DNA of 25,681 bases, taken from positions 1-25,681 of the forward strand of contig JACPCX010000188.1 in the NCBI GenBank assembly GCA_016184305.1, read 5' to 3'. Each line of letters begins with the position of its first letter. The stretch's first letter is position 1. Shown piece by piece: positions 8,609 to 25,681 of this stretch. Origin of the DNA: Candidatus Rokuibacteriota bacterium (GTDB lineage: Bacteria > Methylomirabilota > Methylomirabilia > Rokubacteriales > CSP1-6). The notes beneath the pieces were generated by a model that searched no databases, was not told the origin of the DNA, and saw only the letters and a program-made list of their open reading frames with translations. A program made the translations under genes and the position numbers.

Positions 8609-10330
8609 TCAGTCCTCGAGGATCTGGCGGATCAGCCCCGGATAGCCCGGGTCCTCGCGCGGGTCGTAGCCCGGCACCACGTGGCGGTCGAGGAGAAACT
8701 GGGCCGCCGCGGGGAGCCAGCCGAGCCCGTTGTTTCCGCCGTCGTGCTGGGCGTCGTCCAGCAAGAGCGCCACCTGGACGATGCGCGCCATGCGGGTGAC
8801 GAGGCCGCGCACGTGGTAGCCCGCCTCCTGGGGATCGCCTCGCAGCAACCCGTCCATCGCGCCTCGCACGTCGTCCAGGGCGGTCAGCGCGCGGTCGCGC
8901 GTCGCCGCGAGCGCCGGGGCCTCTGCGCCGAGGAGCAGGTCCTGCGCGTGCCGCAGCAGCGCGTGGTGCATCTTGGACCGGACCGAGTCGCGCAGGACCT
9001 GCGACATGAGCGTGTTGTGCGGGCCCTCCCAGCTCTCCTGCACGGGGACCTCACGATAGAGGCGCGGCAGCGGGCTGAAATCCTCGATGGTGCCGTTGCC
9101 GCCCAGGATCTCGATGGCGTGGTGGACCACCAGCCCGGCGTCGATGGAGCAGGCGTACTTGTTGACGTTGACCGCGGTGCGGAAGACGGCGTCCTCCTCG
9201 GGGTGCGTCCCGGCGAGCGTGAGCCGGTCCTCGAGGGCGGCGACGAAGAGCGTGCCGGCGAGCCCCGCCGTGCCGAGCACCCGCATCTCGGCCAGCTGCT
9301 GGCGCACGGCCGGGAAATCCACGAGCCGCTGGCCGAAGGCCTCGCGCACCCGCGCGTAGTGCCAGGCCTCGACCCAGGCGCGGCGCATGATCCCCGAGGC
9401 GCCGATGCCCACCTCGAGGCGTGAGGTGTTGATGATCACGCCCATGAGGAGCTTGAACCCGTCCTCGAGCCGGCCCACCGGGTAGCCGCGAGCGTCCTCG
9501 AAGTCGAGCTCGGCCGTCGGCAAGGTCCGTGTGCCGAGCTTGTTCTTGAGCCGCCGGATGAGGACGCCGTTGGGGCGCCCGTCCGGAAGCCGCCGCGGCA
9601 CCACGAAGAGCCCGATCCCCGGCGTCCCTTCGGGCGCGCCCTCGGGCCTCGCGCTCACGGCGTAGAGGTCGGCGCCCACGTTGGAGCAGAACCACTTCTC
9701 CCCGCTGAGGCGCCACACGCCGTCCTCGCCCGGCACGGGACGCGCGACGCAGGCGTTGGCGCCCACGTCCGACCCGCCCTGGACCTCGGTGAGGAACTGC
9801 GCGCCGTGCCAGCGCCGATCGTAGTCGCGGTCGAGGAGCCGCGGCAGCCACTCCTCCTTCATCCAGTCGGCGCCGCAGCGCTGGATGGCCTTGATGATCC
9901 CGGCGGTGCAGGCGATCGAGCAGAGGTGCGGGACCTCGCCGTTGTGCCCGAACAGATAGGTGAAGGCCGCGTGGAGCGTCATGTTGCCGGGCTCACCCAG
10001 CACCGCCACGGTGCCCGCGCGCCACACGCGACGACCCACCTCGTGGTGGGCCGGGTGGAAGATGACCTCGGCGGAGCGCTCGCCGATGCTGTTCCAGCCC
10101 TCGAGGCGCGGGAGGTGCTCGGGCCGGTCGAGCTCGCCCGAAGCCTGGCTCACGAAGCCGGCCGAGTCGGCGCCGGCCTGGCGGAGCGCGGGCGCCACCG
10201 CGGCGAGGCGCTCGCTGCCGAGACGGCGGCGGAGCGCCATCCTCAGATAGCCATCGTCCTCGTAGAAGTTGGTGGGCTTCGCGGCCTCCCACCGGGCGAG
10301 TAGCGAGCGTCCGTGCTGGCTTCGGTCCAT
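8609..10330 (-). CDS. AidB-like acyl-CoA dehydrogenase family protein
   Basis: QFLTEVQGGSDVG, GEKWFCS, RRLKNKLGTR and WEGPHN motifs; GGAGG before ATG 10330. Confidence 0.85.
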   Translation of the reverse strand: MDRSQHGRSLLARWEAAKPTNFYEDDGYLRMALRRRLGSERLAAVAPALRQAGADSAGFVSQASGELDRPEHLPRLEGWNSIGERSAEVIFHPAHHEVGRRVWRAGTVAVLGEPGNMTLHAAFTYLFGHNGEVPHLCSIACTAGIIKAIQRCGADWMKEEWLPRLLDRDYDRRWHGAQFLTEVQGGSDVGANACVARPVPGEDGVWRLSGEKWFCSNVGADLYAVSARPEGAPEGTPGIGLFVVPRRLPDGRPNGVLIRRLKNKLGTRTLPTAELDFEDARGYPVGRLEDGFKLLMGVIINTSRLEVGIGASGIMRRAWVEAWHYARVREAFGQRLVDFPAVRQQLAEMRVLGTAGLAGTLFVAALEDRLTLAGTHPEEDAVFRTAVNVNKYACSIDAGLVVHHAIEILGGNGTIEDFSPLPRLYREVPVQESWEGPHNTLMSQVLRDSVRSKMHHALLRHAQDLLLGAEAPALAATRDRALTALDDVRGAMDGLLRGDPQEAGYHVRGLVTRMARIVQVALLLDDAQHDGGNNGLGWLPAAAQFLLDRHVVPGYDPREDPGYPGLIRQILED

Positions 10331-15467: not shown

Positions 15468-17408
15468 ATGGCCGCCTTCCCCCGCCTCTTCGCGCCTGGC
15501 CGGATCGGGCGCCTGGAGCTCCGGAATCGCATCCTGATGGCGCCCATGGAGAAGAATCTCGCCACCGCGGCGGGCGCCGTCACCCAGCGCTACATCGACT
15601 ACGTGGAGGCGCGCGCGGCCGGCGGCGCCGCCCTCATCCTGCTCGAGTCCATGTACGTGCACCCCGCGGGCCGCAATCACCTCTACCAGCTCGGCATCCA
15701 CGACGACGCGCTGGTGCCCGGTTACCGGCGCCTCGTCGAGGTCTGCCATCGCCACGGCGCCCTGGTGGGCGCCGAGCTGGAATTCGCGGGGCGCGAGACC
15801 TCTTCCGCCGTCACGGGCACTCAGCCGGTGGCGCCATCCCCCGTGCCGTGCGCGACGCTGGCGGGCGGTGAGATGCCGCGCGCCCTGTCGGTGCCGGAGA
15901 TCTCCGCCATCGTCGGGGAATTCGCCGAGGCGGCACGCCGGGCGGTGGCCGCCGGCTTCGACATGATCGAGGTCCACGGGGCCCATGGCTATCTCGTCGG
16001 CCAGTTCCTCTCGCCTTACGCCAACAAGCGGGAGGACGAGTACGGGGGGGACTTCGAGCGGCGCCTGCGCTTTCCGCTCGACGTCATCGCGGCGGTCCGC
16101 GAGGCCGTGGGGCCCGGGACGCCGCTCCTCTACCGCCTCTCCGCGGAGGAGCACGTCGAGGGCGGGCTCACGCTGGCGGACATGTGCCGCATCGCCCCGC
16201 GGCTCGAGGCGGCCGGCATCGACGGCCTCGACGTCACGGCCGGCATCTACGAGTCGGCGGTATGGATGGTGCAGCCGATGGAGATGGAGCAGGGGTGCCT
16301 GGCGCCGCTGGCGCGGGAGATCCGGCGCGCCGTGAGCATCCCGGTGAGCGTCGCGGGGCGGATCAGCGACCCGCATGTGGCCGAGCGCATCCTCGAGACA
16401 GGCGACGCCGACTTCGTGACGCTCGGCAGGGCGCTGCACGCCGATCCCGAGATGCCCAGGAAAAGCCGCGAGGGGCGGGAGCGGGAGATCTGCTACTGCG
16501 TGGCCTGCCTCAAGTGCAGCGACCTCCTGGGCCAGAACCAGCCCGTCCTCTGCCTGGCGAATACGCGGACGGCCCGCGAGCGGGAATACACGGTGCGCCG
16601 GGCGGCCGGGCCGCAGCGCGTGGTGGTGGTGGGCGCGGGGCCCGCCGGTCTCGAGGCGGCGCGCGTGCTGGCGCTGCGCGGGCATGCGGTGACCGTGCTC
16701 GAGCGCGCGGCCGAGCCCGGGGGGCAGGTGCTCATGAGCCGGCTCGTGCCCGGGCGGGAAGAGCTGGCCGGGCTCGCCGCCTATCTCGTGGATGCAGCCG
16801 CGCGAGCGGGGGCCACGATCCGGCTTGGTGTTGACGCGACGGTGGACGTGGTGCTCGCCGCGGCGCCCGATGCCGTCGTCGTGGCCACGGGCGCCAGGCC
16901 GGGCGTGCCGCCCATCGCGGGCATCATGGACAGCCCGGCCGTGGATCCCTTCACCGTGCTGCGCCGCCCCGCGGGCCCGGTGCGGCGCGCGCTCGTCATC
17001 GGCGGCGGGCTCCTCGGTGTGGGCGTGGCCCATGTGCTGGCGGAGCGCGGGGCCGATGTCGTCGTGGCCGAGCCCGGGGGCGAGCTTGCGGGGGAGCTGG
17101 GGCTCAGGCCCCGCTGGCAGTACGTGGCCAACCTGCGCGCGCGCGCGAACGTGTCGATCCGGCTCGGGACCACCGTCGAGGCGCTCTCCGCCGGCGGGGC
17201 GGTGCTCCGGAAGCTCGGCGAGGTGGAAAGGCTCAGCGCCCTCGACCTCGTGGTGCCGACGCGGCCCATGCTCGCGGTGAGCGGCCTCGCAGATGCCCTC
17301 AAGGCGCTCCCCGGCGGGCCCGCCGTGTTCGAGATCGGCGACTGCGTCATGCCGCGGACGGCCTTCGAGGCCATGCAGGACGCCGCCGCCCTCGGCCATC
17401 GGCTCTGA
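15468..17408 (+). CDS. OYE-like FMN/[4Fe-4S]/FAD oxidoreductase (FadH/TMA-dehydrogenase-type architecture)
   Basis: NRILMAPM, EVHGAHGYLVGQFLSP..NKR.DEYGG, C-x2-C-x2-C-x11-C, GAGPAGLEAA and ATGARP motifs. Confidence 0.9.
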   Translation: MAAFPRLFAPGRIGRLELRNRILMAPMEKNLATAAGAVTQRYIDYVEARAAGGAALILLESMYVHPAGRNHLYQLGIHDDALVPGYRRLVEVCHRHGALVGAELEFAGRETSSAVTGTQPVAPSPVPCATLAGGEMPRALSVPEISAIVGEFAEAARRAVAAGFDMIEVHGAHGYLVGQFLSPYANKREDEYGGDFERRLRFPLDVIAAVREAVGPGTPLLYRLSAEEHVEGGLTLADMCRIAPRLEAAGIDGLDVTAGIYESAVWMVQPMEMEQGCLAPLAREIRRAVSIPVSVAGRISDPHVAERILETGDADFVTLGRALHADPEMPRKSREGREREICYCVACLKCSDLLGQNQPVLCLANTRTAREREYTVRRAAGPQRVVVVGAGPAGLEAARVLALRGHAVTVLERAAEPGGQVLMSRLVPGREELAGLAAYLVDAAARAGATIRLGVDATVDVVLAAAPDAVVVATGARPGVPPIAGIMDSPAVDPFTVLRRPAGPVRRALVIGGGLLGVGVAHVLAERGADVVVAEPGGELAGELGLRPRWQYVANLRARANVSIRLGTTVEALSAGGAVLRKLGEVERLSALDLVVPTRPMLAVSGLADALKALPGGPAVFEIGDCVMPRTAFEAMQDAAALGHRL

Positions 17409-17487
17409 CAGGCCCCTGACAGGGGCGGCGCTGGCGATCTCGGCCGGCCGCTCTCCCCCTGCGAGGCCAGAGCTGGATGGTCGCCGA

Positions 17488-17661
17488 TCAGCGGCCTCTC
17501 TCCTGCGCTCCGACGCGAGCGGCCCGCGCCGGAAAGGCCCGCAAGCGTCTGCCGGCAGCCTGCTGACCCGGATGTCCATCAGAGCGTTGCCACTTCACCC
17601 CAGCCGGCAGGGCTCCGTAACCGGTCGCCGCCTCCGGGGCCAGAATGACCTCGTAGCGCAT
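17488..17661 (-). pseudogene. RelE/ParE-like toxin N-terminal remnant (last, broken cassette)
   Basis: MRYEVILAPEAATGYGALPAGVK resembles RelE-family N-termini, then decays. It starts about 50 bp after the attC1 core. Confidence 0.45.
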
Positions 17662-17713
17662 GAGGCCCCAATATGGCCAGAATGGCGCGCACGGTCAATT
17701 ACCGGGATGAGCG

Positions 17714-17771
17714 GCCCAACGCCAGCGGTCAGCGGCCGGCGCAGCCGGTCCGCTGGAGCGCTCTGTTGGGC
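17714..17771 (-). repeat. attC site 1 (58 bp)
   Basis: R'' GCCCAAC ... R' GTTGGGC. Bottom-strand stem tcagcggccggc/gccggTccgctgGa has extrahelical T17749 and G17756. Confidence 0.92.
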
Positions 17772-17794
17772 GGTTCGGCGATGAGATCAATCGA

Positions 17795-18817
17795 TCAAGG
17801 CGCTCCCGGGAAGTCTGCGTCGGCCCACGACTTCAAGGTATTTGGAATGGCTTCGACTTGAAGCTCAGGGTATTCGCTAGAGAGCCGAGTGTGGATTGCG
17901 GCGGCATCGGGACAGACAAGAACGAGCTTGCTGTTACGGGATCTAAGCGTAGAAAGAATCGGCTGGTAGGACGCCCGGTCGTGAGGGTTGAAGCTATAGC
18001 CGATTGTGACGAGAGGCATCGTGGAGGTTGCGAGCACCTCTGCCGCCCGACTGTAGACCGAATCGCTAAACTCCTTTCTCAACCCCTCGGTCTTGTCCGG
18101 AACCGGCGCCACGACTCGGCGCTCAATTGGCTCGTAGCCGAGAACTGGCGGTAACCGCTGGAGCGGCGTGAATAGGGGGGAGATCGAATCCGGATCGAAG
18201 AGGAACTTCGGGGCGGGCAATGTTTTGTACCACGCGACGCTTTCGCCTGGAGTTGTTTCGAAGGTGAAACTTGACGTGTAGAGGCAGAGGCTGCCATGCA
18301 GGTGCAAGACAAGAGAGATCGAGGACCTGCCGAGCAAGTGATCGTGGCCAGCCGCGACTTCGGCAATCACTGGCATGCCGTAGCCGTCGTGCGGATACCA
18401 GTCTCCTTGACGAAGGAGGAAGAGCTCGGGAAGTGAGTCGTAGTTGAACGTGAGAAACTGGGATCCGCGAAAGCGCGTGAAAAACTTCGAGTAGGAGTTT
18501 GGCGCAGCGCCGGGCGAGGGAAACAGCCGGGGCACGAGGTAATAGTCGGACTTCATCACAGAATGTGTAAGTCGCCGGAGCGGCTCGAACTCGCGCTTCG
18601 CCAGCGATTCCTGGAACAGGCCTTCGATGGACTTATCAACCGGAGGTGACGAAAGGTCGAAGCAGACCTGAGCGAGGTCACCAAGCAGCGGATACGCGCA
18701 ATGGATTTCGTGTTTTCCGATGTAAATCGACTCCCCATACACTGGTCCCACTTCGGAGTTCGCTTCGGCGTTGAAGCCGGCACCAAGCAAGAACACCTGC
18801 CGGTTGTTCGGATTCAT
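17795..18817 (-). CDS. SIR2-like (SIR2_2-type) domain protein, cassette-borne
   Basis: FLLGAGF, TFNYD, LHLHGS and IGYSF...D motifs. Confidence 0.8.
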   Translation of the reverse strand: MNPNNRQVFLLGAGFNAEANSEVGPVYGESIYIGKHEIHCAYPLLGDLAQVCFDLSSPPVDKSIEGLFQESLAKREFEPLRRLTHSVMKSDYYLVPRLFPSPGAAPNSYSKFFTRFRGSQFLTFNYDSLPELFLLRQGDWYPHDGYGMPVIAEVAAGHDHLLGRSSISLVLHLHGSLCLYTSSFTFETTPGESVAWYKTLPAPKFLFDPDSISPLFTPLQRLPPVLGYEPIERRVVAPVPDKTEGLRKEFSDSVYSRAAEVLATSTMPLVTIGYSFNPHDRASYQPILSTLRSRNSKLVLVCPDAAAIHTRLSSEYPELQVEAIPNTLKSWADADFPGAP

Positions 18818-18844
18818 CGAGATGGCTGACGCACGTTCACCGCC

Positions 18845-18902
18845 GCCGAACGCCGCCGCTCAGCGGCCGGCGCAGCCGGTCCGCTGAAGCGGTTCGTTAG
18901 CC
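18845..18902 (-). repeat. attC site 2 (58 bp)
   Basis: R'' GGCTAAC ... R' GTTCGGC; shares an identical 27-nt core (18860-18886) with attC1 (17729-17755). Confidence 0.9.
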
Positions 18903-18968
18903 ACGCAGGCGGATGCGCTCGTGAGCGAACTCGGCACCATTCGGCCACACGATCGACGAGTGTCGTTT

Positions 18969-20408
18969 TCATCGCCACCACCTGATCATCAGCGTCACGA
19001 CAATCGCGACGATGACACCGAAGACGGCGAGCTGAGGGAACGACAAACGTGCTGACAATCCCTCGACGGTCGATCGCATCGCCTGGAGGGCGTCGTCAGT
19101 TCGGTCCAGCCGCTCAGGTAGCCGTTCCAGACGATCGACAGATCGCTCGATCACTCCGGAGCGTTCCTCGAGGCGATCGAGACAGCGCTTCACGCCTGCC
19201 ACACCCTGGTCGATCTCCTCGAGCTTCTCGGCGAGACGCTCCAAGCGCGACCCGAAACCGTCGCTGCACTCCGGCTCGGTTGCCATGATGTCCAGATCTC
19301 GGTCTTCGTAAAGCTCAGTGTCCTCGCCGATCTCGCGTAGCTGCTGGCGAGCCCGTTGGTGGATGCTTGCTCGGACGGGCGCAGGCAGGCTTCGGTTGTC
19401 GGCCAGGCCCTTGAGCGCCGCGACATCATTCCCGGCGACGAGAGACTCGATCTCGTCTTCGTTCAGCGTCCCGATCCGCGCGTACGCCAGCTCCCGACAT
19501 TCGTCGTCCGAGTCCCTCCGGGCAACGTCCAACGTTTCAGCGTGGTCGTCCGGATCACAGGCGCAGACGATCTGTGCGCGGAGTGGCGACAAGCGGCACG
19601 CGCGGTACGTCGTCGCCTTTGCACGGTCGTCAGCGGGCACGTGGCGGTAGACGGCCATCTGAAGATAGTTATCGGGCCATCGCACAGCGCGCCCCCACAG
19701 CGACGTGAGAAATCTGTTCGCTTCGTAGAACGTCGAGCCATGAAGCGGCATCGGGTGCCCCTTGAGTCCAGCACCCTTGACGATCCGCTCGATCATCGCG
19801 CGGTTAGTGAGGAAGGCCCAGCACAACTCGCAACGCTCCGGCAGTTCGATGCCAAGTTGTCGGTCCTCTGGGTCAAAAAGCTGAAGGATGAGACCCGGAT
19901 GAACTTCGGCATTACGCACGAGCGCAAGGCGCTCGGAATGAGACGAATCGCGAAACCACCGGAGCGAATCATCCGGCAACGAGAGAGGCCCGAGGATGCA
20001 GGGGTTCTCTCGCAGAGACGCCCTGACCACGGGCTCGGGATCATCCTTGAGGCGCACGAGGAGGTTCCTGTCGGGGAGCCGGTACCCTGCAGGTTGGCTC
20101 ACGAACTCACTTGCGATGTCCAAGACCTTCAGCCGATCGGGAAACAAGTAGACCTCCGGGGCCAAGGTCTCCCGCTCGCGGTAGTCGAGATGGCGTGCGT
20201 TTCGGGCGATCCATCGCCGGACCTCGACGGACGGATCGCTCACGGCGAGCAGGGCCAGCTCGTACGGTAGTCGATCGTCGCGATACTCGGGGCTGCGATA
20301 GAGGCCTTCAAGGAGCGTGATGCGCCCTTGAACATCGGCCGCCTCGTACTGGGATCTTAGCTCTGCTACCACGTAGGCGTCGTGAATTGCGTATCTCGGG
20401 ATGCTCAT
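18969..20408 (-). CDS. HEAT/LRV-like repeat protein with C-terminal coiled coil and TM anchor
   Basis: Repeats DPSVEVRRWIARN, DPEPVVRASLREN and DSDDECRELAY; heptad-rich region; terminal LAVFGVIVAIVVTLMIRWWR. Confidence 0.7.
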   Translation of the reverse strand: MSIPRYAIHDAYVVAELRSQYEAADVQGRITLLEGLYRSPEYRDDRLPYELALLAVSDPSVEVRRWIARNARHLDYRERETLAPEVYLFPDRLKVLDIASEFVSQPAGYRLPDRNLLVRLKDDPEPVVRASLRENPCILGPLSLPDDSLRWFRDSSHSERLALVRNAEVHPGLILQLFDPEDRQLGIELPERCELCWAFLTNRAMIERIVKGAGLKGHPMPLHGSTFYEANRFLTSLWGRAVRWPDNYLQMAVYRHVPADDRAKATTYRACRLSPLRAQIVCACDPDDHAETLDVARRDSDDECRELAYARIGTLNEDEIESLVAGNDVAALKGLADNRSLPAPVRASIHQRARQQLREIGEDTELYEDRDLDIMATEPECSDGFGSRLERLAEKLEEIDQGVAGVKRCLDRLEERSGVIERSVDRLERLPERLDRTDDALQAMRSTVEGLSARLSFPQLAVFGVIVAIVVTLMIRWWR

Positions 20409-20446
20409 GTGGAGCGCTCCGGCTGTGGGTGGTTGATGCTGTGCCT

Positions 20447-21940
20447 AGACAGTATGACTTCCACGATGTGAGGCTGACCCCCAGCGCTCTTCGCGGGTTA
20501 GCCTGGACGGGCCAGAGCCGCCCTGTGCGCGGGGCACACAACGAGCGTGGAGGTCAGCCATGGACGAGTCTAGCCAGACAACGCTCTTTGTCGGGCTCGA
20601 TGTTCACGAGGGCTCGATCGCCGTCGCCTATGCGCCGGCGGACCGCGCCGCCGAGGTGGTGTCGCGGGGGCGATCGGGACCCGGCAGGGCGACATTGACA
20701 CGCTGATCCGGCGGCTCGAGTCGAAGGGCGCGCCGCTGGTGTTCGTCTACGAGGCGGGGCCATGCGGCTCCTGGCTGTATCGGGACCTCACCGGGAAGGG
20801 CCTGGCCTGCCAGGTCGTGGCGCCGTCGCTGATCCCGCGCAAGGCGGGAGACCGCGTGAAGACGGATCGGCGCGATGCAATCACGCTGGCCCGCTTGATG
20901 CGCAGCGGCGACCTGAGTGCCATCGACGTGCCCGGGATCGAAGACGAGGGGCTGCGGGACTTGAGCCGCGGCCGGGACGACACGATGCAGGATCTCCAGC
21001 GAAGCAAGCGCCGGCTGAAATCGTTCCTGCTGCGGCAGGACATTTGCTACGAGGGCCGGGCGAACTGGAACGCCTTCCAGGAGTACGTGCGCGCGGTCAG
21101 CGAGCAGCAGGAGCGACTGCAGCGCGTGGAGCGCGAGCTGCACGAGGCGGTGAAGGGCTGGCGGCTGTCCCCGGGGGTCGAGGCGATCCGGGCGCTGCGG
21201 GGCGTGGAGCTCACCGGCGCCGTCATCGTGCTGGCCGAGCTTGGGGACCTCACGCGGTTCGATCGCCTGCGCCAGCTGATGAGCGATCTCGGGCTGACCC
21301 CCTCGGAGTACTCGTCGGGGGCGCGGCGCCAGCAGGGGGGCATCACCAAGGCGGGGAACAGCCACGCCCGGCGCGCGCGGGTGGAAGGGGCGTGGACCTA
21401 TCGGTATCCGGCGAACGTGAGCCGGCCCCTCCACCTCCGGCTGGAGAAGCTGCCGCCCGAGGTTCAGGCGATCGGCTGGAAGGCGCAGGTGCGCCTGTGC
21501 CGACGGTATCGCCAGTTGACCGCCCGGGGGAAGCCCGTCACCCAGGTCGTGGTGGCCATGGCCCGCGAGATGGCGGCCTTCGTCTGGGCCATTGCGCGCC
21601 TCGTCCCGCTGGCCGCCTCCTGACGGGGGGCGCCCCATTGAGGCAGACGGAACGCCGAGCCACTGATCACGATCTCGAGCCATCGGCGGAGGCGCGGCCC
21701 CGGTATCGGCGCACTCTTCGATCGCGTGATGAGGCCCCGACCCTCGCCCCGAGAGCGAAGCAGGCGCCGCGACGGACACCTGTACGGTGGTAGCCAACCC
21801 ACGGATCTCAGCATGATCACCCGTCGCAGTGACAGGCTCCGTCTCTTCCGCTGGCTCGAGCAACCCCCCGGGAAGGCCCAAACACGAACGGCCCCCGCGA
21901 TCCGAGGGTCCCCGTAGCTCTTGACAGTGGAAGTAATATC
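20447..21940 (+). mobile_element. IS110-family element of IS1111 type, inserted in attC3
   Basis: Sub-terminal IRs ATGACTTCCAC (20454-20464) and GTGGAAGTAAT (21927-21937) lie 7 nt and 3 nt from the ends. No target duplication; flanks rejoin as GCCT|AAC. Long 3' non-coding region; TTGACA at 21921. Confidence 0.85.
20560..21623 (+). pseudogene. IS110 DEDD transposase/recombinase, frameshifted
   Basis: GGAGG then ATG 20560. FVGLDVH lies in one frame, a 1-nt loss occurs near the G run at 20666-20670, and YEAGP, KTDRRDA and [10 protein letters not shown] lie in the 20739 frame. Probable short internal deletion around ANWN/AFQEY. Confidence 0.85.
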
Positions 21941-22033
21941 AACGTCCGCGGTCAGCCGCGAGCCGCACGCAGCGGCCTCGTTCTCTTCACCCGGCGTCGC
22001 GCGCGGCTCGGCGGCTGGAGCGCGCTGTTCGGC
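21941..22033 (-). repeat. attC site 3 (interrupted; remaining 4 bp at 20443-20446)
   Basis: R'' GCCGAAC; stem tcagccgcgagccgc/gcggctcggcggctgGa. R' reconstructs to canonical GTTAGGC when the IS is removed. Confidence 0.85.
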
Positions 22034-22260
22034 AGCCCACCTTTGCCGCGGACAGCGCGTGCAGTGTTGAGAACTCCCCGCAGAGCCTCGTTGACGGCGT
22101 CGGGCGAGGGAAACGCCGCAGCGACTTCGGGTTCCAAGAGGACCAAGTTGCTCCCCTTGCGGAGTCGCGCGACGTACTTGCCGCGTACGCCACCCCTCAT
22201 CGACGCGAAGTCGTACTCGGGCAGGAGGTCGTTATTGTTCCGTCGCTTTGCCTTGCCCAT
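21952..22260 (-). CDS. BrnA-like antitoxin
   Basis: LLPEYDF...VRGKY...LEPEVAAAFP...VNEALR motif. Real start is probably ATG 22260, overlapping the brnT end. Confidence 0.75.
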   Translation of the reverse strand: MGKAKRRNNNDLLPEYDFASMRGGVRGKYVARLRKGSNLVLLEPEVAAAFPSPDAVNEALRGVLNTARAVRGKGGLPNSALQPPSRARRRVKRTRPLRAARG

Positions 22261-22522
22261 AGAATGCTCGCTCGCGCCTCGTTGCTCGGCGGGCGCTGAT
22301 GATGCGGATGGTGTCATTTCGTTCTGTGTGTGCGACGACGAGAAGCCTCCCACGGTCGGATACGCCGATCGTAACAAAACGCCGCTCGTCCGTGGAGTGT
22401 GCCTCGTCGGGGAACGTGGTCGAGAGTGCGTCCTCCAGCACCGTTGCCGCCTCCTGAAAGTGTACTCGGTGTTTCTTGAGGTTCGCGGCCGCCTTTGCGG
22501 CGCTCCACTCAAACTTCACCAT
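22232..22522 (-). CDS. brnT: BrnT family toxin
   Basis: FEW...KA..NLKKH.V.F.EA, HS..E.RF..IG and IRIISARRAT..ER..Y motifs. Confidence 0.92.
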   Translation of the reverse strand: MVKFEWSAAKAAANLKKHRVHFQEAATVLEDALSTTFPDEAHSTDERRFVTIGVSDRGRLLVVAHTERNDTIRIISARRATRRERAFYGQGKATEQ

Positions 22523-22560
22523 GGCTGGGTCCGTACCCGTTCATGCGTGGTCGTCAGTCT

Positions 22561-22619
22561 GCCGAACGCCCGGCGTCAGCCGCGGCCCGCGGGCCGTCGG
22601 CTGAACGACGTGGTTCGAC
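22561..22619 (-). repeat. attC site 4 (59 bp)
   Basis: R'' GTCGAAC ... R' GTTCGGC; stem tcagccgcggccc/gggccgTcggctgAa; lies 5 bp after the toxin stop. Confidence 0.88.
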
Positions 22620-22624
22620 GCCCG

Positions 22625-22984
22625 TCACGCTTCGCCATCTTCAAGGGTATTCACGCCACGGAGCATCCTGACGACCGCTTCGATGAGTTGCTCGCGGGCC
22701 TCCGAGCTCAGAGTGGCGACCTGACCAGCCATCAACTCTCGGCTCGCGGTGAACAGCTTGCCGGGCCGGGCGTGGCTGTCGAAACGAAGGGAGCCCGAGC
22801 TGAAGCTCGACGCCGCCAACCAAACGGCTCGCGGGTCGCCGTAGGGGTTACTGGTGACCTGGCAAAGGATCCAGTCATGCCGACCGGCGTCGGCCAGGAC
22901 GATTGCGGAACGCAGCTTCGGCTGAGAGAGATCCGAGAGCGGAAACCGGACGAGAACTATCCCGCCGGCTGAAGGTGTGACCAC
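22625..22984 (-). CDS. PemK/MazF family toxin
   Basis: G.IVLVRFP.SDLSQ.KLR.AIVL, ILCQVTS and S..RPGKLFT motifs. Confidence 0.85.
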   Translation of the reverse strand: MVTPSAGGIVLVRFPLSDLSQPKLRSAIVLADAGRHDWILCQVTSNPYGDPRAVWLAASSFSSGSLRFDSHARPGKLFTASRELMAGQVATLSSEAREQLIEAVVRMLRGVNTLEDGEA

Positions 22985-23169
22985 GCCGCTTCCTCCTCGG
23001 GCCGGCTCCAGTCAGCAAGTGCCCGCTCACTCAAGAGCGCGCGCTCGTCACTCCCTGGCGCATCGTCGAGAATTGTGACGAGCGCGCGGCGCGGTCCTGG
23101 GAGCTGGATGTCGTCCAGCAGGCGAACGTTGCCACTCGCGTCGACTACGGCTTCGACTGTGCGGATCAT
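22957..23169 (-). CDS. Putative antitoxin partner of the MazF-like toxin
   Basis: 70 aa with GGAGG RBS; acidic C-terminus LSERALADWSRPEEEAAWSHL; overlaps the toxin start. Confidence 0.75.
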   Translation of the reverse strand: MIRTVEAVVDASGNVRLLDDIQLPGPRRALVTILDDAPGSDERALLSERALADWSRPEEEAAWSHLQPAG

Positions 23170-23219
23170 CAGCGCCCTCCCCTCGTGATCATACCGCAGC
23201 GCGTCGGTCTCCGTAGTGC

Positions 23220-23304
23220 GGCGAACGGGGGCGGCGGATGAGCGGCGGGAGGAACCGCGAGCTTGCTCGCGGGGCCGACCGTCCGCTCCAGTCGCCCGTC
23301 AGGC
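23220..23304 (-). repeat. attC site 5 (degenerate)
   Basis: R'' GCCTGAC (AAC changed to GAC) ... R' GTTCGCC; stem tgagcggcgg/ccgTccgctcCa with inner palindrome cgcgagc/gctcgcg. Confidence 0.7.
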
Positions 23305-23348
23305 GGCTGTCAATCCGCCGCCCCCGATGGCGCGGCGCCAAGCGTCCG

Positions 23349-23411
23349 CGCCATCGGGCATGGTGAGCGGCCGGCCCCTCTGGGCCGGTCCGCTCCACCA
23401 TGTTGTTCGCC
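23349..23411 (-). repeat. attC site 6 (degenerate R')
   Basis: R'' GGCGAAC 4 bp after the hicA stop; stem tgagcggccggccc/gggccggTccgctcCa; R' reads GAT instead of GTT. Confidence 0.75.
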
Positions 23412-23415
23412 AGGC

Positions 23416-23607
23416 TCACCGGCCAATCTCCGGTACCGAAAGGGCCCGGCAGATCTTCCGGGCCAGCACATCCGAGATCTCGGTGTGCATGGGCACGGTC
23501 TCGAGATCTCCCGTCGTAGGATTGGTCCAAAGGGAATGCGCCCGGCCTTCCCGCTTCAAGTGACACCCGTGCTTCCTCAGGCGGCGAAGCAGGTCGCCCC
23601 GCTTCAC
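23416..23607 (-). CDS. hicA: HicA family toxin
   Basis: 63 aa: L...GC.LKREG..HS.W.NP...VP.H.EI...LA..IC. Confidence 0.9.
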   Translation of the reverse strand: MKRGDLLRRLRKHGCHLKREGRAHSLWTNPTTGDLETVPMHTEISDVLARKICRALSVPEIGR

Positions 23608-23819
23608 CCGACGACCACCTTCTCTCGGGTCGCCCCCGCGGGTATGCCCCGCAGGCCGTCCTTGCGCCTGTCCTCAAGAATCAGGGCGATGGCGTCGCTC
23701 AGGCTCTTCAAGGCTGCCGCCTTCGTCCTGCCGTGGCCATTCGCGCCCGGAATCTCCGGACAGTAGGCGATGTACCAGCGTCTGTCCCGTTCCACTACCG
23801 CGGTGAACTCGTTCCGCAT
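23604..23819 (-). CDS. hicB: Short HicB family antitoxin
   Basis: GGAGGAGG then MRNEFTAVVERD..WYIAYCPEIPGANG.G.T; its TGA overlaps the hicA start. Confidence 0.88.
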   Translation of the reverse strand: MRNEFTAVVERDRRWYIAYCPEIPGANGHGRTKAAALKSLSDAIALILEDRRKDGLRGIPAGATREKVVVG

Positions 23820-23873
23820 GCCTCCTCCTGACTCCGCTTCAAGCGTAGCGCATGTCTGGCGCTGCGTTGCTCT

Positions 23874-23931
23874 GGCGAACGCCGCCGGTGAGCGGCCGGG
23901 GAAGCCGGTCCGATCGAGTGGCCTGTTAGCC
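23874..23931 (-). repeat. attC site 7 (58 bp)
   Basis: R'' GGCTAAC contains the TAA stop of the upstream gene; R' GTTCGCC; stem is related to attC1 and attC2. Confidence 0.88.
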
Positions 23932-24632
23932 AGACCCCTCCGACGTTCGAGCACGGCAGAAATGGTCACCAAGCGCCCGAAGAGCCGCTGTCGCCTCACG
24001 TAAGAGGTGCTCCATGATCTCCGGCTTTCTCTGACCGCCTGCGCTCACTTTTGCGAGAATCTTGTCGTAACGGTCACCCTTGCGATGCCCGGCATCTGCG
24101 GAGCGAAGGGCCTGGAGATCTCGCAGGAACTGGACTACAACAGCCGTCTGAGGGAAGCCCCTGGCAGTAAGGAACCGTTCGAACTTCGTGATGCCCTTCT
24201 CGTCTTTCTGCCCAGGCCCCGCTTGGGCAACCAAAGCCTGCTCATTGAGCGAGTCAATCAAGAGCTTCGTAAGCACAAGGACTTGTTGATCGAGTTTCGA
24301 TTGCGAGTTCGTCACCGGCACCCGGACGGTGGCCAACAAATACTCGTCGGCCGGATCCGGGGCGAGAAAGAGGAGCCAACCGATGACGTTACGCCAGGAG
24401 GTGTTGAGACGCTCGTACGCTGCCCGAAAGATCAGATCCGGGGCCTGAGGAGGAGCAAACTGCGCCAAAAAGCTCCGACGATAGTTCGTCTCGCTGATCT
24501 CGCCTTGAGGAGGTACGTTGAACTGCTTCCAATGGAGACGCTCCTCGTACGGGAGGTCGCGGCCGAGGTCTCCCAGGAAGACAGCCACATGGGTTTCGTG
24601 ATTGGCGTCGATCTGGATACTCCAGAGGCTAA
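23926..24632 (-). pseudogene. 3' part of a hypothetical cassette gene, truncated by the ISAzo13-family element
   Basis: Open frame WSIQIDANHETHVAVFLGDLGRDLPYEERLHWKQFN ... LQALRS...HRKG. The ORF-track start (24675) lies inside the IS end. Confidence 0.7.
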
Positions 24633-25681
24633 GGAACTGTAACGAAATAACTGAGTGGGTTTCTGATCGCGACAATGTATTCTTTCTCTCGTGGAACGAC
24701 AGGTCCTACGGCAGAAGTACTCAGCCCTCGCGCCTGCGCTGAACGAACGCAGTCGGAGACTGTGGGCGGCGACCGAGGCGAAGGCGATAGGACATGGCGG
24801 CATCGCGTGTGTGGAGCGCGCCGTTGCGATCTCGCGCTCGACCATCAGTCGTGGGATCAAGGAATTAGCATTCGCCCAGAAACCACTGGATGCGGCTCAT
24901 ATTCGCAGGCCCGGTGGGGGGCGCAAGAGCACGGCGCAGAACGATCCGACACTGAGGACAGACCTGGAGGCGCTGGTGGAGCCCGCTGTTGCGGGCGACC
25001 CCCAATCGCCGTTGCGCTGGACGTCCAAGAGTCTGCGCAAGCTGGCGGCCGAACTCCAGGCGATGGGACACACGACCAGCCACCGAATGGGCGCCGCATT
25101 GTTGTCAGAGGCGGAGTACAGTCTACAGGCGAATCGCAAGTCGGTGGAGGAAGGGAAGCGTCATCCCGATCGGGACGGGCAATTTCGCTACATCAACGAG
25201 CACGTTCGACGATTTCAGCGCATCCGCCAACCCGTCATCTCCGTGGATACCAAGAAGAAGGAACTCGTCGGAGATTTCAAAAACACGGGCAAGGAATGGC
25301 GGCCGAAAGGGGAGCCGGAGCCTGTGCGGGTGCATGACTTTCTCATTGAGGAGAGCGGCAAGGCTGCCCCGTATGGGGTCTACGATCTCACACGCAACGT
25401 CGGGTGGGTCAGCGTCGGCATTGATCACGATACGGCGAGCTTTGCGGTCAGAACGATTCGGCGGTGGTGGCAGGTCATGGGGCGACCGAGATATCCGCAC
25501 GCCAAGGAACTGCTCATTACGGCAGATTCTGGGGGAAGCAACGGAGCCCGTGTCCGGTTGTGGAAGTGGGAGCTCCAGAAGCTCGCCAATGCGATGGGCA
25601 AGGCCATCACCGTCTGCCACCTTCCTCCGGGAACCAGCAAATGGAACAAGATCGAGCATCGGCTCTTTTCCTACATCAGCA
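24633..25681 (+). mobile_element. ISAzo13-family insertion sequence (left part)
   Basis: AT-rich terminus (TAA)GGAACTGTAACGAAATAA followed by the transposase; right end is outside the window. Confidence 0.8.
24691..25680 (+). CDS. ISAzo13-family DDE transposase, 3' partial
   Basis: Frame from GTG 24691 contains LNERSRRLWAATEA, RRPGGGRK, PLRWTSKS, HPDRDGQF, ISVDTKKKE, TADSGGSNG and PPGTSKWNKIEHRLF; no stop seen before the window end. Confidence 0.92.
   Translation, partial: MERQVLRQKYSALAPALNERSRRLWAATEAKAIGHGGIACVERAVAISRSTISRGIKELAFAQKPLDAAHIRRPGGGRKSTAQNDPTLRTDLEALVEPAVAGDPQSPLRWTSKSLRKLAAELQAMGHTTSHRMGAALLSEAEYSLQANRKSVEEGKRHPDRDGQFRYINEHVRRFQRIRQPVISVDTKKKELVGDFKNTGKEWRPKGEPEPVRVHDFLIEESGKAAPYGVYDLTRNVGWVSVGIDHDTASFAVRTIRRWWQVMGRPRYPHAKELLITADSGGSNGARVRLWKWELQKLANAMGKAITVCHLPPGTSKWNKIEHRLFSYIS

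Follow-up and report, generated by a model that had tools for sequence, protein, structure and literature searches.

A decayed IS110-family element in the R' box of an integron attC site, with a guide RNA that appears programmed for that box

Introduction

How does an insertion sequence (IS) come to lie within the recombination box of an integron attC site, and what does it mean there for the cassettes on either side? The question is raised by a stretch of 25,681 nucleotides (the window; contig JACPCX010000188.1, here C224) of a Candidatus Rokuibacteriota genome bin of 3.2 Mb and 70% GC, which contains a minus-strand cassette array (approx. 17,700-24,700), toxin-antitoxin cassettes included, with one of its attC sites split by an IS (table 1). 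The reading favoured here, to which a probability of about 0.85 is given, is that of a decayed bridge recombinase element of the IS110 family, belonging to the ISSso6/ISCARN28 protein cluster, with a guide RNA programmed for the attC R' box (box names R', R'', L' and L'' as in PMC2727003).

Table 1. Positions in the window of the element, its parts, the attC sites and the neighbouring cassettes.
Feature	Position	Strand	Remarks
IS110-family element, 1,494 bp	20447..21940	+	ends from junctions, C229 copy and relatives
-10-like hexamer CAGTAT of predicted circle-junction promoter	20450..20455	+	putative function
Left sub-terminal inverted repeat, 12 bp	20453..20464	+	one mismatch with the right repeat; conserved in relatives
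Conserved 5' leader	20472..20559	+	stem 20472-20482 with 20549-20559 over GGAGG ribosome-binding site; putative function
DEDD transposase pseudogene, PF01548 and PF02371	20560..21623	+	catalytic motifs still present
Predicted bridge/seek RNA	21691..21843	+	enclosing stem; target-binding loop 21707-21769; donor-binding loop 21769-21827
Right target guide	21720..21729	+	complementary to target from base -1 through AACG; decayed at 21728
Left target guide	21746..21753	+	same sense as left flank; decayed at 21751
Left donor guide	21804..21811	+	same sense as right IS end plus AG; decayed at 21807
-35 hexamer TTGACA	21921..21926	+	17 bp from -10 hexamer in predicted circle
Right sub-terminal inverted repeat	21927..21938	+	
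Outer four bases of target attC R' box (RRRY)	20443..20446	-	moved to far side of IS
Rest of target attC	21941..22033	-	R' GTT 21941-21943; L' 21951-21957; L'' 22013-22020; R'' 22027-22033
Unoccupied attC	17714..17771	-	R' GTTGGGC
Unoccupied attC	18845..18902	-	R' GTTCGGC; closes the IS-bearing cassette
Unoccupied attC	22561..22619	-	R' GTTCGGC
Unoccupied attC	23874..23931	-	R' GTTCGCC
Downstream cassette ORF, 479 aa	18969..20408	-	no Pfam match; IS now in the 5' end of this cassette
Upstream cassette	22046..22522	-	BrnT toxin (22232-22522), then a small ORF without Pfam match

Insertion into the R' box

Deletion of positions 20447-21940, or equally of 20448-21941, joins GTGCCT to AACGTCC and restores an R' box that reads GTTAGGC on the minus strand. 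The two junctions have one A in common, so that the ends of the element may be shifted by one base, and target duplication is absent. A reading of this DNA from its sequence only had placed an IS inside the R' core of an attC site, opposite in orientation to the cassettes and without duplication; the rejoined box, with the transposase on the plus and the cassettes on the minus strand, agrees with it, and the GTTGATA given by the IS end on the top strand also agrees with its view that the GTT triplet survives and that the IS now belongs to the 5' end of the downstream cassette.

The remaining attC passes the box-geometry test described below. The minimum-energy fold of its bottom strand pairs AAC with GTT, with a z of only −1.35, so that the fold alone is weak evidence. 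Both junctions are covered, with 0-2 differences, by Logan contigs from four public runs of one study, and the frameshift of the transposase gene is spanned without a gap by contigs of two of the four; since these runs may be the source samples, such coverage confirms the assembly only. None of the 15 joints listed, of 21, from four DNA runs skips the IS, hence no empty allele was seen; no RNA runs containing the stretch were found.

A second copy in the genome, on contig C229, occupies the same base of a different attC near an integron-integrase fragment and, together with the AAC right junctions of the relatives, confirms that the insertion is not due to chance. The occupied attC of the window has T at −1, and the four intact ones, all empty, do not; one intact attC of C229 with T at −1 and AACG is nevertheless empty. 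The heptamer CCTAACG occurs eight times in the 3.2-Mb genome.

No integrase gene is present within the window, and integron-integrase fragments were found elsewhere in the genome (C229:6493-6831 and C170:2-205), the one on C229 being truncated and oriented toward its own cassette array. A further attC cluster, free of IS copies, lies on contig C136 (576-669, 2439-2510, 2981-3110 and near 10125), and a left-end stub of a related element, without transposase, on contig C13 (40561-40685). Within the window, toxin-antitoxin cassettes (BrnT, PemK/MazF-like, HicA) follow one another at 22232-23999, where the attC sites near 23221-23290 and 23355-23410 are degenerate, and the upstream end of the array is marked by an ISAzo13-family transposase (PF07592; 24691-25681) that runs off the contig end. 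The large cassette ORFs of 340 aa (17795-18817) and 479 aa are both without Pfam match. The former carries an N-terminal, SIR2-like FLLGAG motif, and the latter a coiled coil and a membrane anchor at its end; both are possible defence genes.

Anatomy and decay of the element

The transposase retains the motifs GLDVH, YEAGP, KTDRRD and PSEYSSG, and combines the DEDD RuvC-like domain of the IS110 family with a C-terminal domain that contains the SG serine. Also typical of the family are the oriented, site-specific insertion without duplication and the guide-RNA loops that, by computation, match target and donor. The transposase of the C229 copy matches NF033542 with 247 bits (cut-off, 140), and a PDB sequence search gave just one weak match, to the ISCro4 transposase. 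The earlier label 'IS1111-type' holds for the architecture. The distance of the 12-bp repeats from the ends, the common A not counted, is 6 nt on the left and 2 nt on the right (approx. 7 and 3 nt are expected), the non-coding flank of the transposase gene is long downstream (317 nt, versus 113 nt upstream), and a junction promoter is predicted. It does not hold for the protein, which groups with ISSso6 and ISCARN28.

Joining of the ends in a circle would create the predicted promoter; a CATAAT/CAGTAT-type hexamer stands at the −10 place in most of 109 elements, and TTGACA at the exact −35 place in 67 of them, among the matches listed. The linear element has no sigma-70-type promoter in a scan of 20300-22100, and thus no outward promoter for the downstream cassette. 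The fold of the 5' leader is accompanied by double changes in 9 of 21 pairs (25 sequences). The 5' arm of its stem could alternatively pair with 20497-20506, which would make a translational switch possible.

Compared with the C229 copy (82% DNA identity, intact frame of 371 aa), the window copy has a frameshift near 20665 and an in-frame 57-bp deletion near 21072. It also carries 40 private substitutions at columns conserved in 22 close relatives (20560-21840), of which 22 are A:T to C:G changes, a kind found 0-8 times in the relatives. Changes of this kind are linked with oxidised dGTP in MutT-type mutation bias, and their excess may reflect a neutral mutation bias of the host. All three guides of the RNA carry a private substitution in the window copy. 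With the frameshift, the deletion and the three mutated guides the window copy cannot move on its own; it is a dead pseudogene, which has neither the intact transposase nor the matching guides of an active element. Rfam gave no match over 17300-25681 at E values up to 1, and the guide RNA of the window folded alone gives no signal (z of −1.1 and 0.8).

Relatives and their targets

Transposase matches were found in 40 of 251 genomes of the phylum (protein search, E up to 1e-60, the tally including the unpublished genome G076, from which no other result is drawn), and collection scans for relatives returned at least 80, 21 and at least 80 loci. When the sub-terminal repeats were the sole basis for calling ends, relatives at or above 60% identity gave 83 distinct junction pairs, both own copies included. 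Among the matches listed at that identity, the left junction is AG in 66/66 readable cases and the right junction AAC in 57/61, the other four being AGC, AGA, AGT and one mis-anchored row; since the elements are related, such counts here and below overstate independence and are not probabilities.

Whether the right flanks are attC sites was judged with a box-geometry test, devised with its threshold for this analysis in place of an initial, energy-only test that proved too noisy, and applied to 117 flanks of at least 120 nt; the L box that it scores lies beyond the guide-paired bases. Among the matches listed, it was passed by 43 of 69 AACG flanks (62%), by none of four AACA flanks and by one of 44 non-AAC flanks; control values were 119 of 3000 genomic AACG sites (4%) and 150 of 3450 shuffles. 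The 26 listed AACG flanks that failed the strict test include some that are truncated or of other geometry. Five related genomes added four right junctions, of which three read AACG and the fourth AACT; inspection by eye showed an L'-like box after every one. Hosts named among the matches listed include Rokubacteria, Acidobacteriota, Chloroflexota and several Gammaproteobacteria, and the marine gammaproteobacterial relatives in this set sit in attC R' boxes.

Several loci deserve separate mention. The right junction of L197 is AG followed by ACG, one base more than in the usual AAC form; an attC-like L' box comes after it, and the junction could be an alternative resolution of a mismatched core. 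L020 and L024 (genomes G116 and G113), 77-79% relatives, occupy a CAT-AACACC site that fails the attC test, and their guides are shifted toward it. L045 has an AGTCC target with a matching right guide. L147, L024 and L017 carry extra 200-bp inserts in the 3' non-coding region, the one of L147 being common to L024.

The Klebsiella pneumoniae plasmid NZ_CP095763 (IncC, NDM-1) carries a further member of the clade, 56% identical, in a class 1 integron. It lies between arr-3 and qacE-delta-1 (L228:2893-4447), where it splits the R' box of the arr-3 attC at the very base used in the window, and its guides match. Only one near-identical record is present among 72,556 plasmids, no match was found in 5,426 E. 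coli genomes, and the closest relatives, at 69-73% DNA identity, are from Pseudoalteromonas, Alteromonas and Vibrio.

Guide RNA and core

In 29 sequences the 3' region can be folded into two loops within an enclosing stem, with double changes in 13 of 31 pairs. The right guide precedes the left one, which is the order reported for IS1111 seekRNAs (PMC11187229). Guides could be aligned in 113 of 115 elements among the matches listed, two being without anchor and misaligned rows being kept. In the 50 listed elements with non-AAC targets, which include five near-identical ISSso6 copies, the guides match their own flanks at 6.52 of nine non-core positions against a shuffled expectation of 2.81 ± 0.2 (maximum of 2000 shuffles, 3.58), and in the 63 listed AAC elements at 6.14 against 4.72. 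Base −1 of the target is also paired by the right guide in 103 of 109 listed elements (shuffled mean, 79; maximum, 89). The covariation of guides and targets, with the AAC junctions and the geometry test, substantiates the earlier proposal of an RNA-programmed lineage aimed at the R' recombination box. The left donor guide is nearly invariant, so that the covariation informs on the target loop only.

Among the matches listed, the target of non-AAC elements starts with AG, like the donor, in 47 of 50 cases, and the AAC elements have a right guide with terminal TT in 55 of 63 cases and a left guide that keeps AG in 56 of 63, so that donor and target have one base in common and the left guide would face a G-T wobble. 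For IS621, cleavage of the top strand has been placed directly behind the core (PMC13626964); a cut after the common A would give exactly the observed junctions. Pairing with the core is strongly preferred by IS621 (PMC11208160), and an unmatched second core base would be unusual by that standard and counts against the explanation.

The following path may be proposed. By analogy with the family, the element would be excised as a circle, in which the joined ends form a TTGACA-17-CAGTAT promoter that would drive the transposase and the 3' guide RNA. As the covariation shows, the predicted target loop pairs with both strands of RYYT-AACG, read on the attC bottom strand, which fixes both place and orientation of the insertion. 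To judge from the junctions, exchange takes place at the single common A, leaving AG on the left and AAC on the right without duplication; the family's usual target has AG at this place, and in the attC-seekers the right guide changed to read AA and the left one kept AG. The product, as seen in the window, is an attC that has kept AAC/GTT, the L box and the extrahelical base but not the four outer pairs of its R box, and a following cassette with the IS in its 5' end. The last step, that the altered site still serves the integrase, if less often, and the IS can thereby ride with the downstream cassette, is given a slight preference; a site that is effectively locked is doubtful, and the remaining outcomes are mixed or site-dependent. 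In this scheme attC feet offer intergenic landing places, which are renewed by new cassettes.

Alternative explanations

It is unlikely that the transposase recognizes the folded attC hairpin or integrase-made intermediates, with the RNA match secondary, although the guide match is short (approx. 4 + 5 bases), cruciform extrusion could ease strand opening, and CTAACG is found 40 times in the genome, mostly outside attC, yet both genome copies sit in attC. Sister elements with other guides occupy guide-matched non-attC targets, and some AACG insertions lack a recognizable attC, which speaks for the guide rather than the hairpin. Alternatively, insertion could be near-random at short AACG-type sites and the enrichment in attC due to purging of the other insertions, as only surviving insertions are visible and attC feet are intergenic. 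What makes this reading quite improbable is the fact that guides follow RYYT-AACG across phyla, down to 43% protein identity among the matches listed, and shows the guide itself to be tuned to attC, and the difference between the 62% of listed AACG flanks with attC and the 4% of genomic AACG sites.

The sequence-only reading had also set the element beside the described IS1111-attC group (ISKpn4, ISPa21, ISPst6, ISUnCu1 and ISPa25). This group is reportedly the subject of Tetu & Holmes 2008 and Post & Hall 2009. The two indeed have in common the attC target, antisense orientation, lack of duplication, sub-terminal repeats and a guide RNA after the transposase gene (PMC11187229, PMC3001079). 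However, that the element is an ordinary member of the group is most improbable, being refuted for both position and protein, and kinship with the group is not supported. The C229 transposase has about 25% identity with those of ISKpn4, ISPa21 and ISPa62, and 25-28% over long alignments with those of the copies compared, and in the phylogeny that had been called for it lies on a very long branch from ISPa62 (25% identity), whereas the members of the group considered here are 76-100% identical to ISPa62, with ISPa25 at 46% to ISKpn4. At 371 aa it falls outside the tight IS1111 protein clade, in which transposases have 330-350 aa (PMC11187229). In six of seven copies of the known group (ISPa62, two copies, ISKpn4, ISPpu24, an ISPa21-like element and the pIEC33019 element called ISUnCu1) the insertion lies on the R''-L'' arm, between L'' and the spacer of R'', 6 nt from the R'' triplet, and parts R'' from the rest of the hairpin; the group has been placed near the 5' end of attC (PMC3001079). 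In contrast, the insertions of the present lineage are in R', at a distance of two bases from the crossover, and both triplet and L box stay intact. Place and protein both set the element apart. The seventh copy, ISPa21 of L262 (NZ_OL468819), occupies a non-attC site between dndB and the next gene.

Kinship

The nearest named relative of the C229 transposase is ISSso6 (56% identity), which has been clustered with ISVisp2, ISCps8, ISSpi3 and ISMtsp6 (Supplementary Table 1 of PMC11208160); a bridge RNA has been predicted for ISCARN28 (PMC11208160). The present lineage and this cluster have the same end motifs, 3' RNA scaffold and guide order, but ISSso6 and its Burkholderiaceae relatives differ in having AG-core, non-attC targets. 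In a tree of 118 rows the AAC-seekers make up most of a large group with ISSso6 and the Burkholderiaceae elements nested inside, and a single attC-seeker clade that excludes them, a grouping named after the first tree had been seen, is rejected (p-AU 0.0003; 55 of the 118 rows). The tree, the root of which is uncertain, would thus fit either a loss of attC targeting by ISSso6 or more than one origin of the habit.

IS621 is similar in its target and donor loops with guides for both strands, its junction promoter and its DEDD and serine motifs (PMC11208160, PMC13626964). The RNA of IS621, however, lies at its left end, and its donor and target have a 2-bp core in common; in the present lineage it is the right end that holds the RNA, with the right guide ahead of the left and a single base common to donor and target. 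Group IIC-attC introns also insert antisense into attC; unlike this IS, which is without a sigma-70-type outward promoter, they are retroelements with an outward promoter, and they insert near the 5' end of attC (PMC3001079).

ISUnCu1, considered as an R' inserter from the mention of a '56-bp truncated attC' in PMC10232235, has the R''-L'' position in its record, and ISSde13 and ISCps4 fall into different protein clusters. Within the coverage of the literature search, outside which lay the group papers of 2008 and 2009, the ISfinder notes and target-logo figures, no account of an IS110 element inserted in an attC R' box was found.

Consequences for the integron

Integrase-mediated recombination takes place between A and C of the bottom-strand AAC, and the conserved sequence of attC is limited to AAC and GTT (PMC7439510, PMC2727003). 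In the window the insertion has reduced the outer R-box pairs from three to none. Among the matches listed, all of 30 other loci that have both flanks and pass a stricter attC test show a like loss, from 1-4 pairs to 0-1, which favours an impaired attC. The logic of cassettes makes the IS a part of the downstream one, and excision of either neighbouring cassette needs the altered site. If the latter were dead, the insertion would lock the two cassettes together. Besides the lost pairs, the high rank of R-box pairing in a machine-learning study of attC activity (PMC7439510) and the finding of no moved IS copy among the loci examined speak for such a lock, which nevertheless seems unlikely: AAC and GTT, the only conserved attC sequence (PMC2727003), are both kept and remain paired in the fold of the bottom strand, and 14 of the 30 listed sites had only one or two outer pairs even before insertion.

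Riding of the IS with the downstream cassette, the outcome slightly preferred above, could have left its mark as a common left flank with different right flanks, but in flanks of 1.5-2.5 kb or shorter no such loci were found among the matches listed apart from ISSso6 copies; nor was any IS found beside intI at attI in flanks of that length (IntI1 matched two loci). Thus no genomic trace of hitchhiking was found, in data too sparse to exclude it.

Meaning

In this lineage an RNA-guided element is independently aimed at attC, and at another and more delicate spot than that chosen by the known group; the position of the insertion, two bases from the integrase cut, makes a direct test of IS hitchhiking on cassettes possible. 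As the remainder of the attC is intact, such insertions could pass for long cassettes in annotation. From the relatives come more than 100 natural pairs of guide and target for a bridge RNA scaffold of which the literature searched gave only the ISCARN28 prediction (PMC11208160), and a natural mismatched donor-target core that bears on the rules of bridge RNA reprogramming. One member of the clade is already within the class 1 integron of a Klebsiella NDM-1 plasmid. It may tentatively be suggested that these elements form a large and old bridge-recombinase clade tuned to the integron crossover box, with a donor-target core that has only one base in common, in which the integrase site would survive insertion and the IS could spread by both its own recombinase and IntI, and which would have reached a clinical class 1 integron and, through reprogramming to targets other than attC, been the source of ISSso6 of Shigella.
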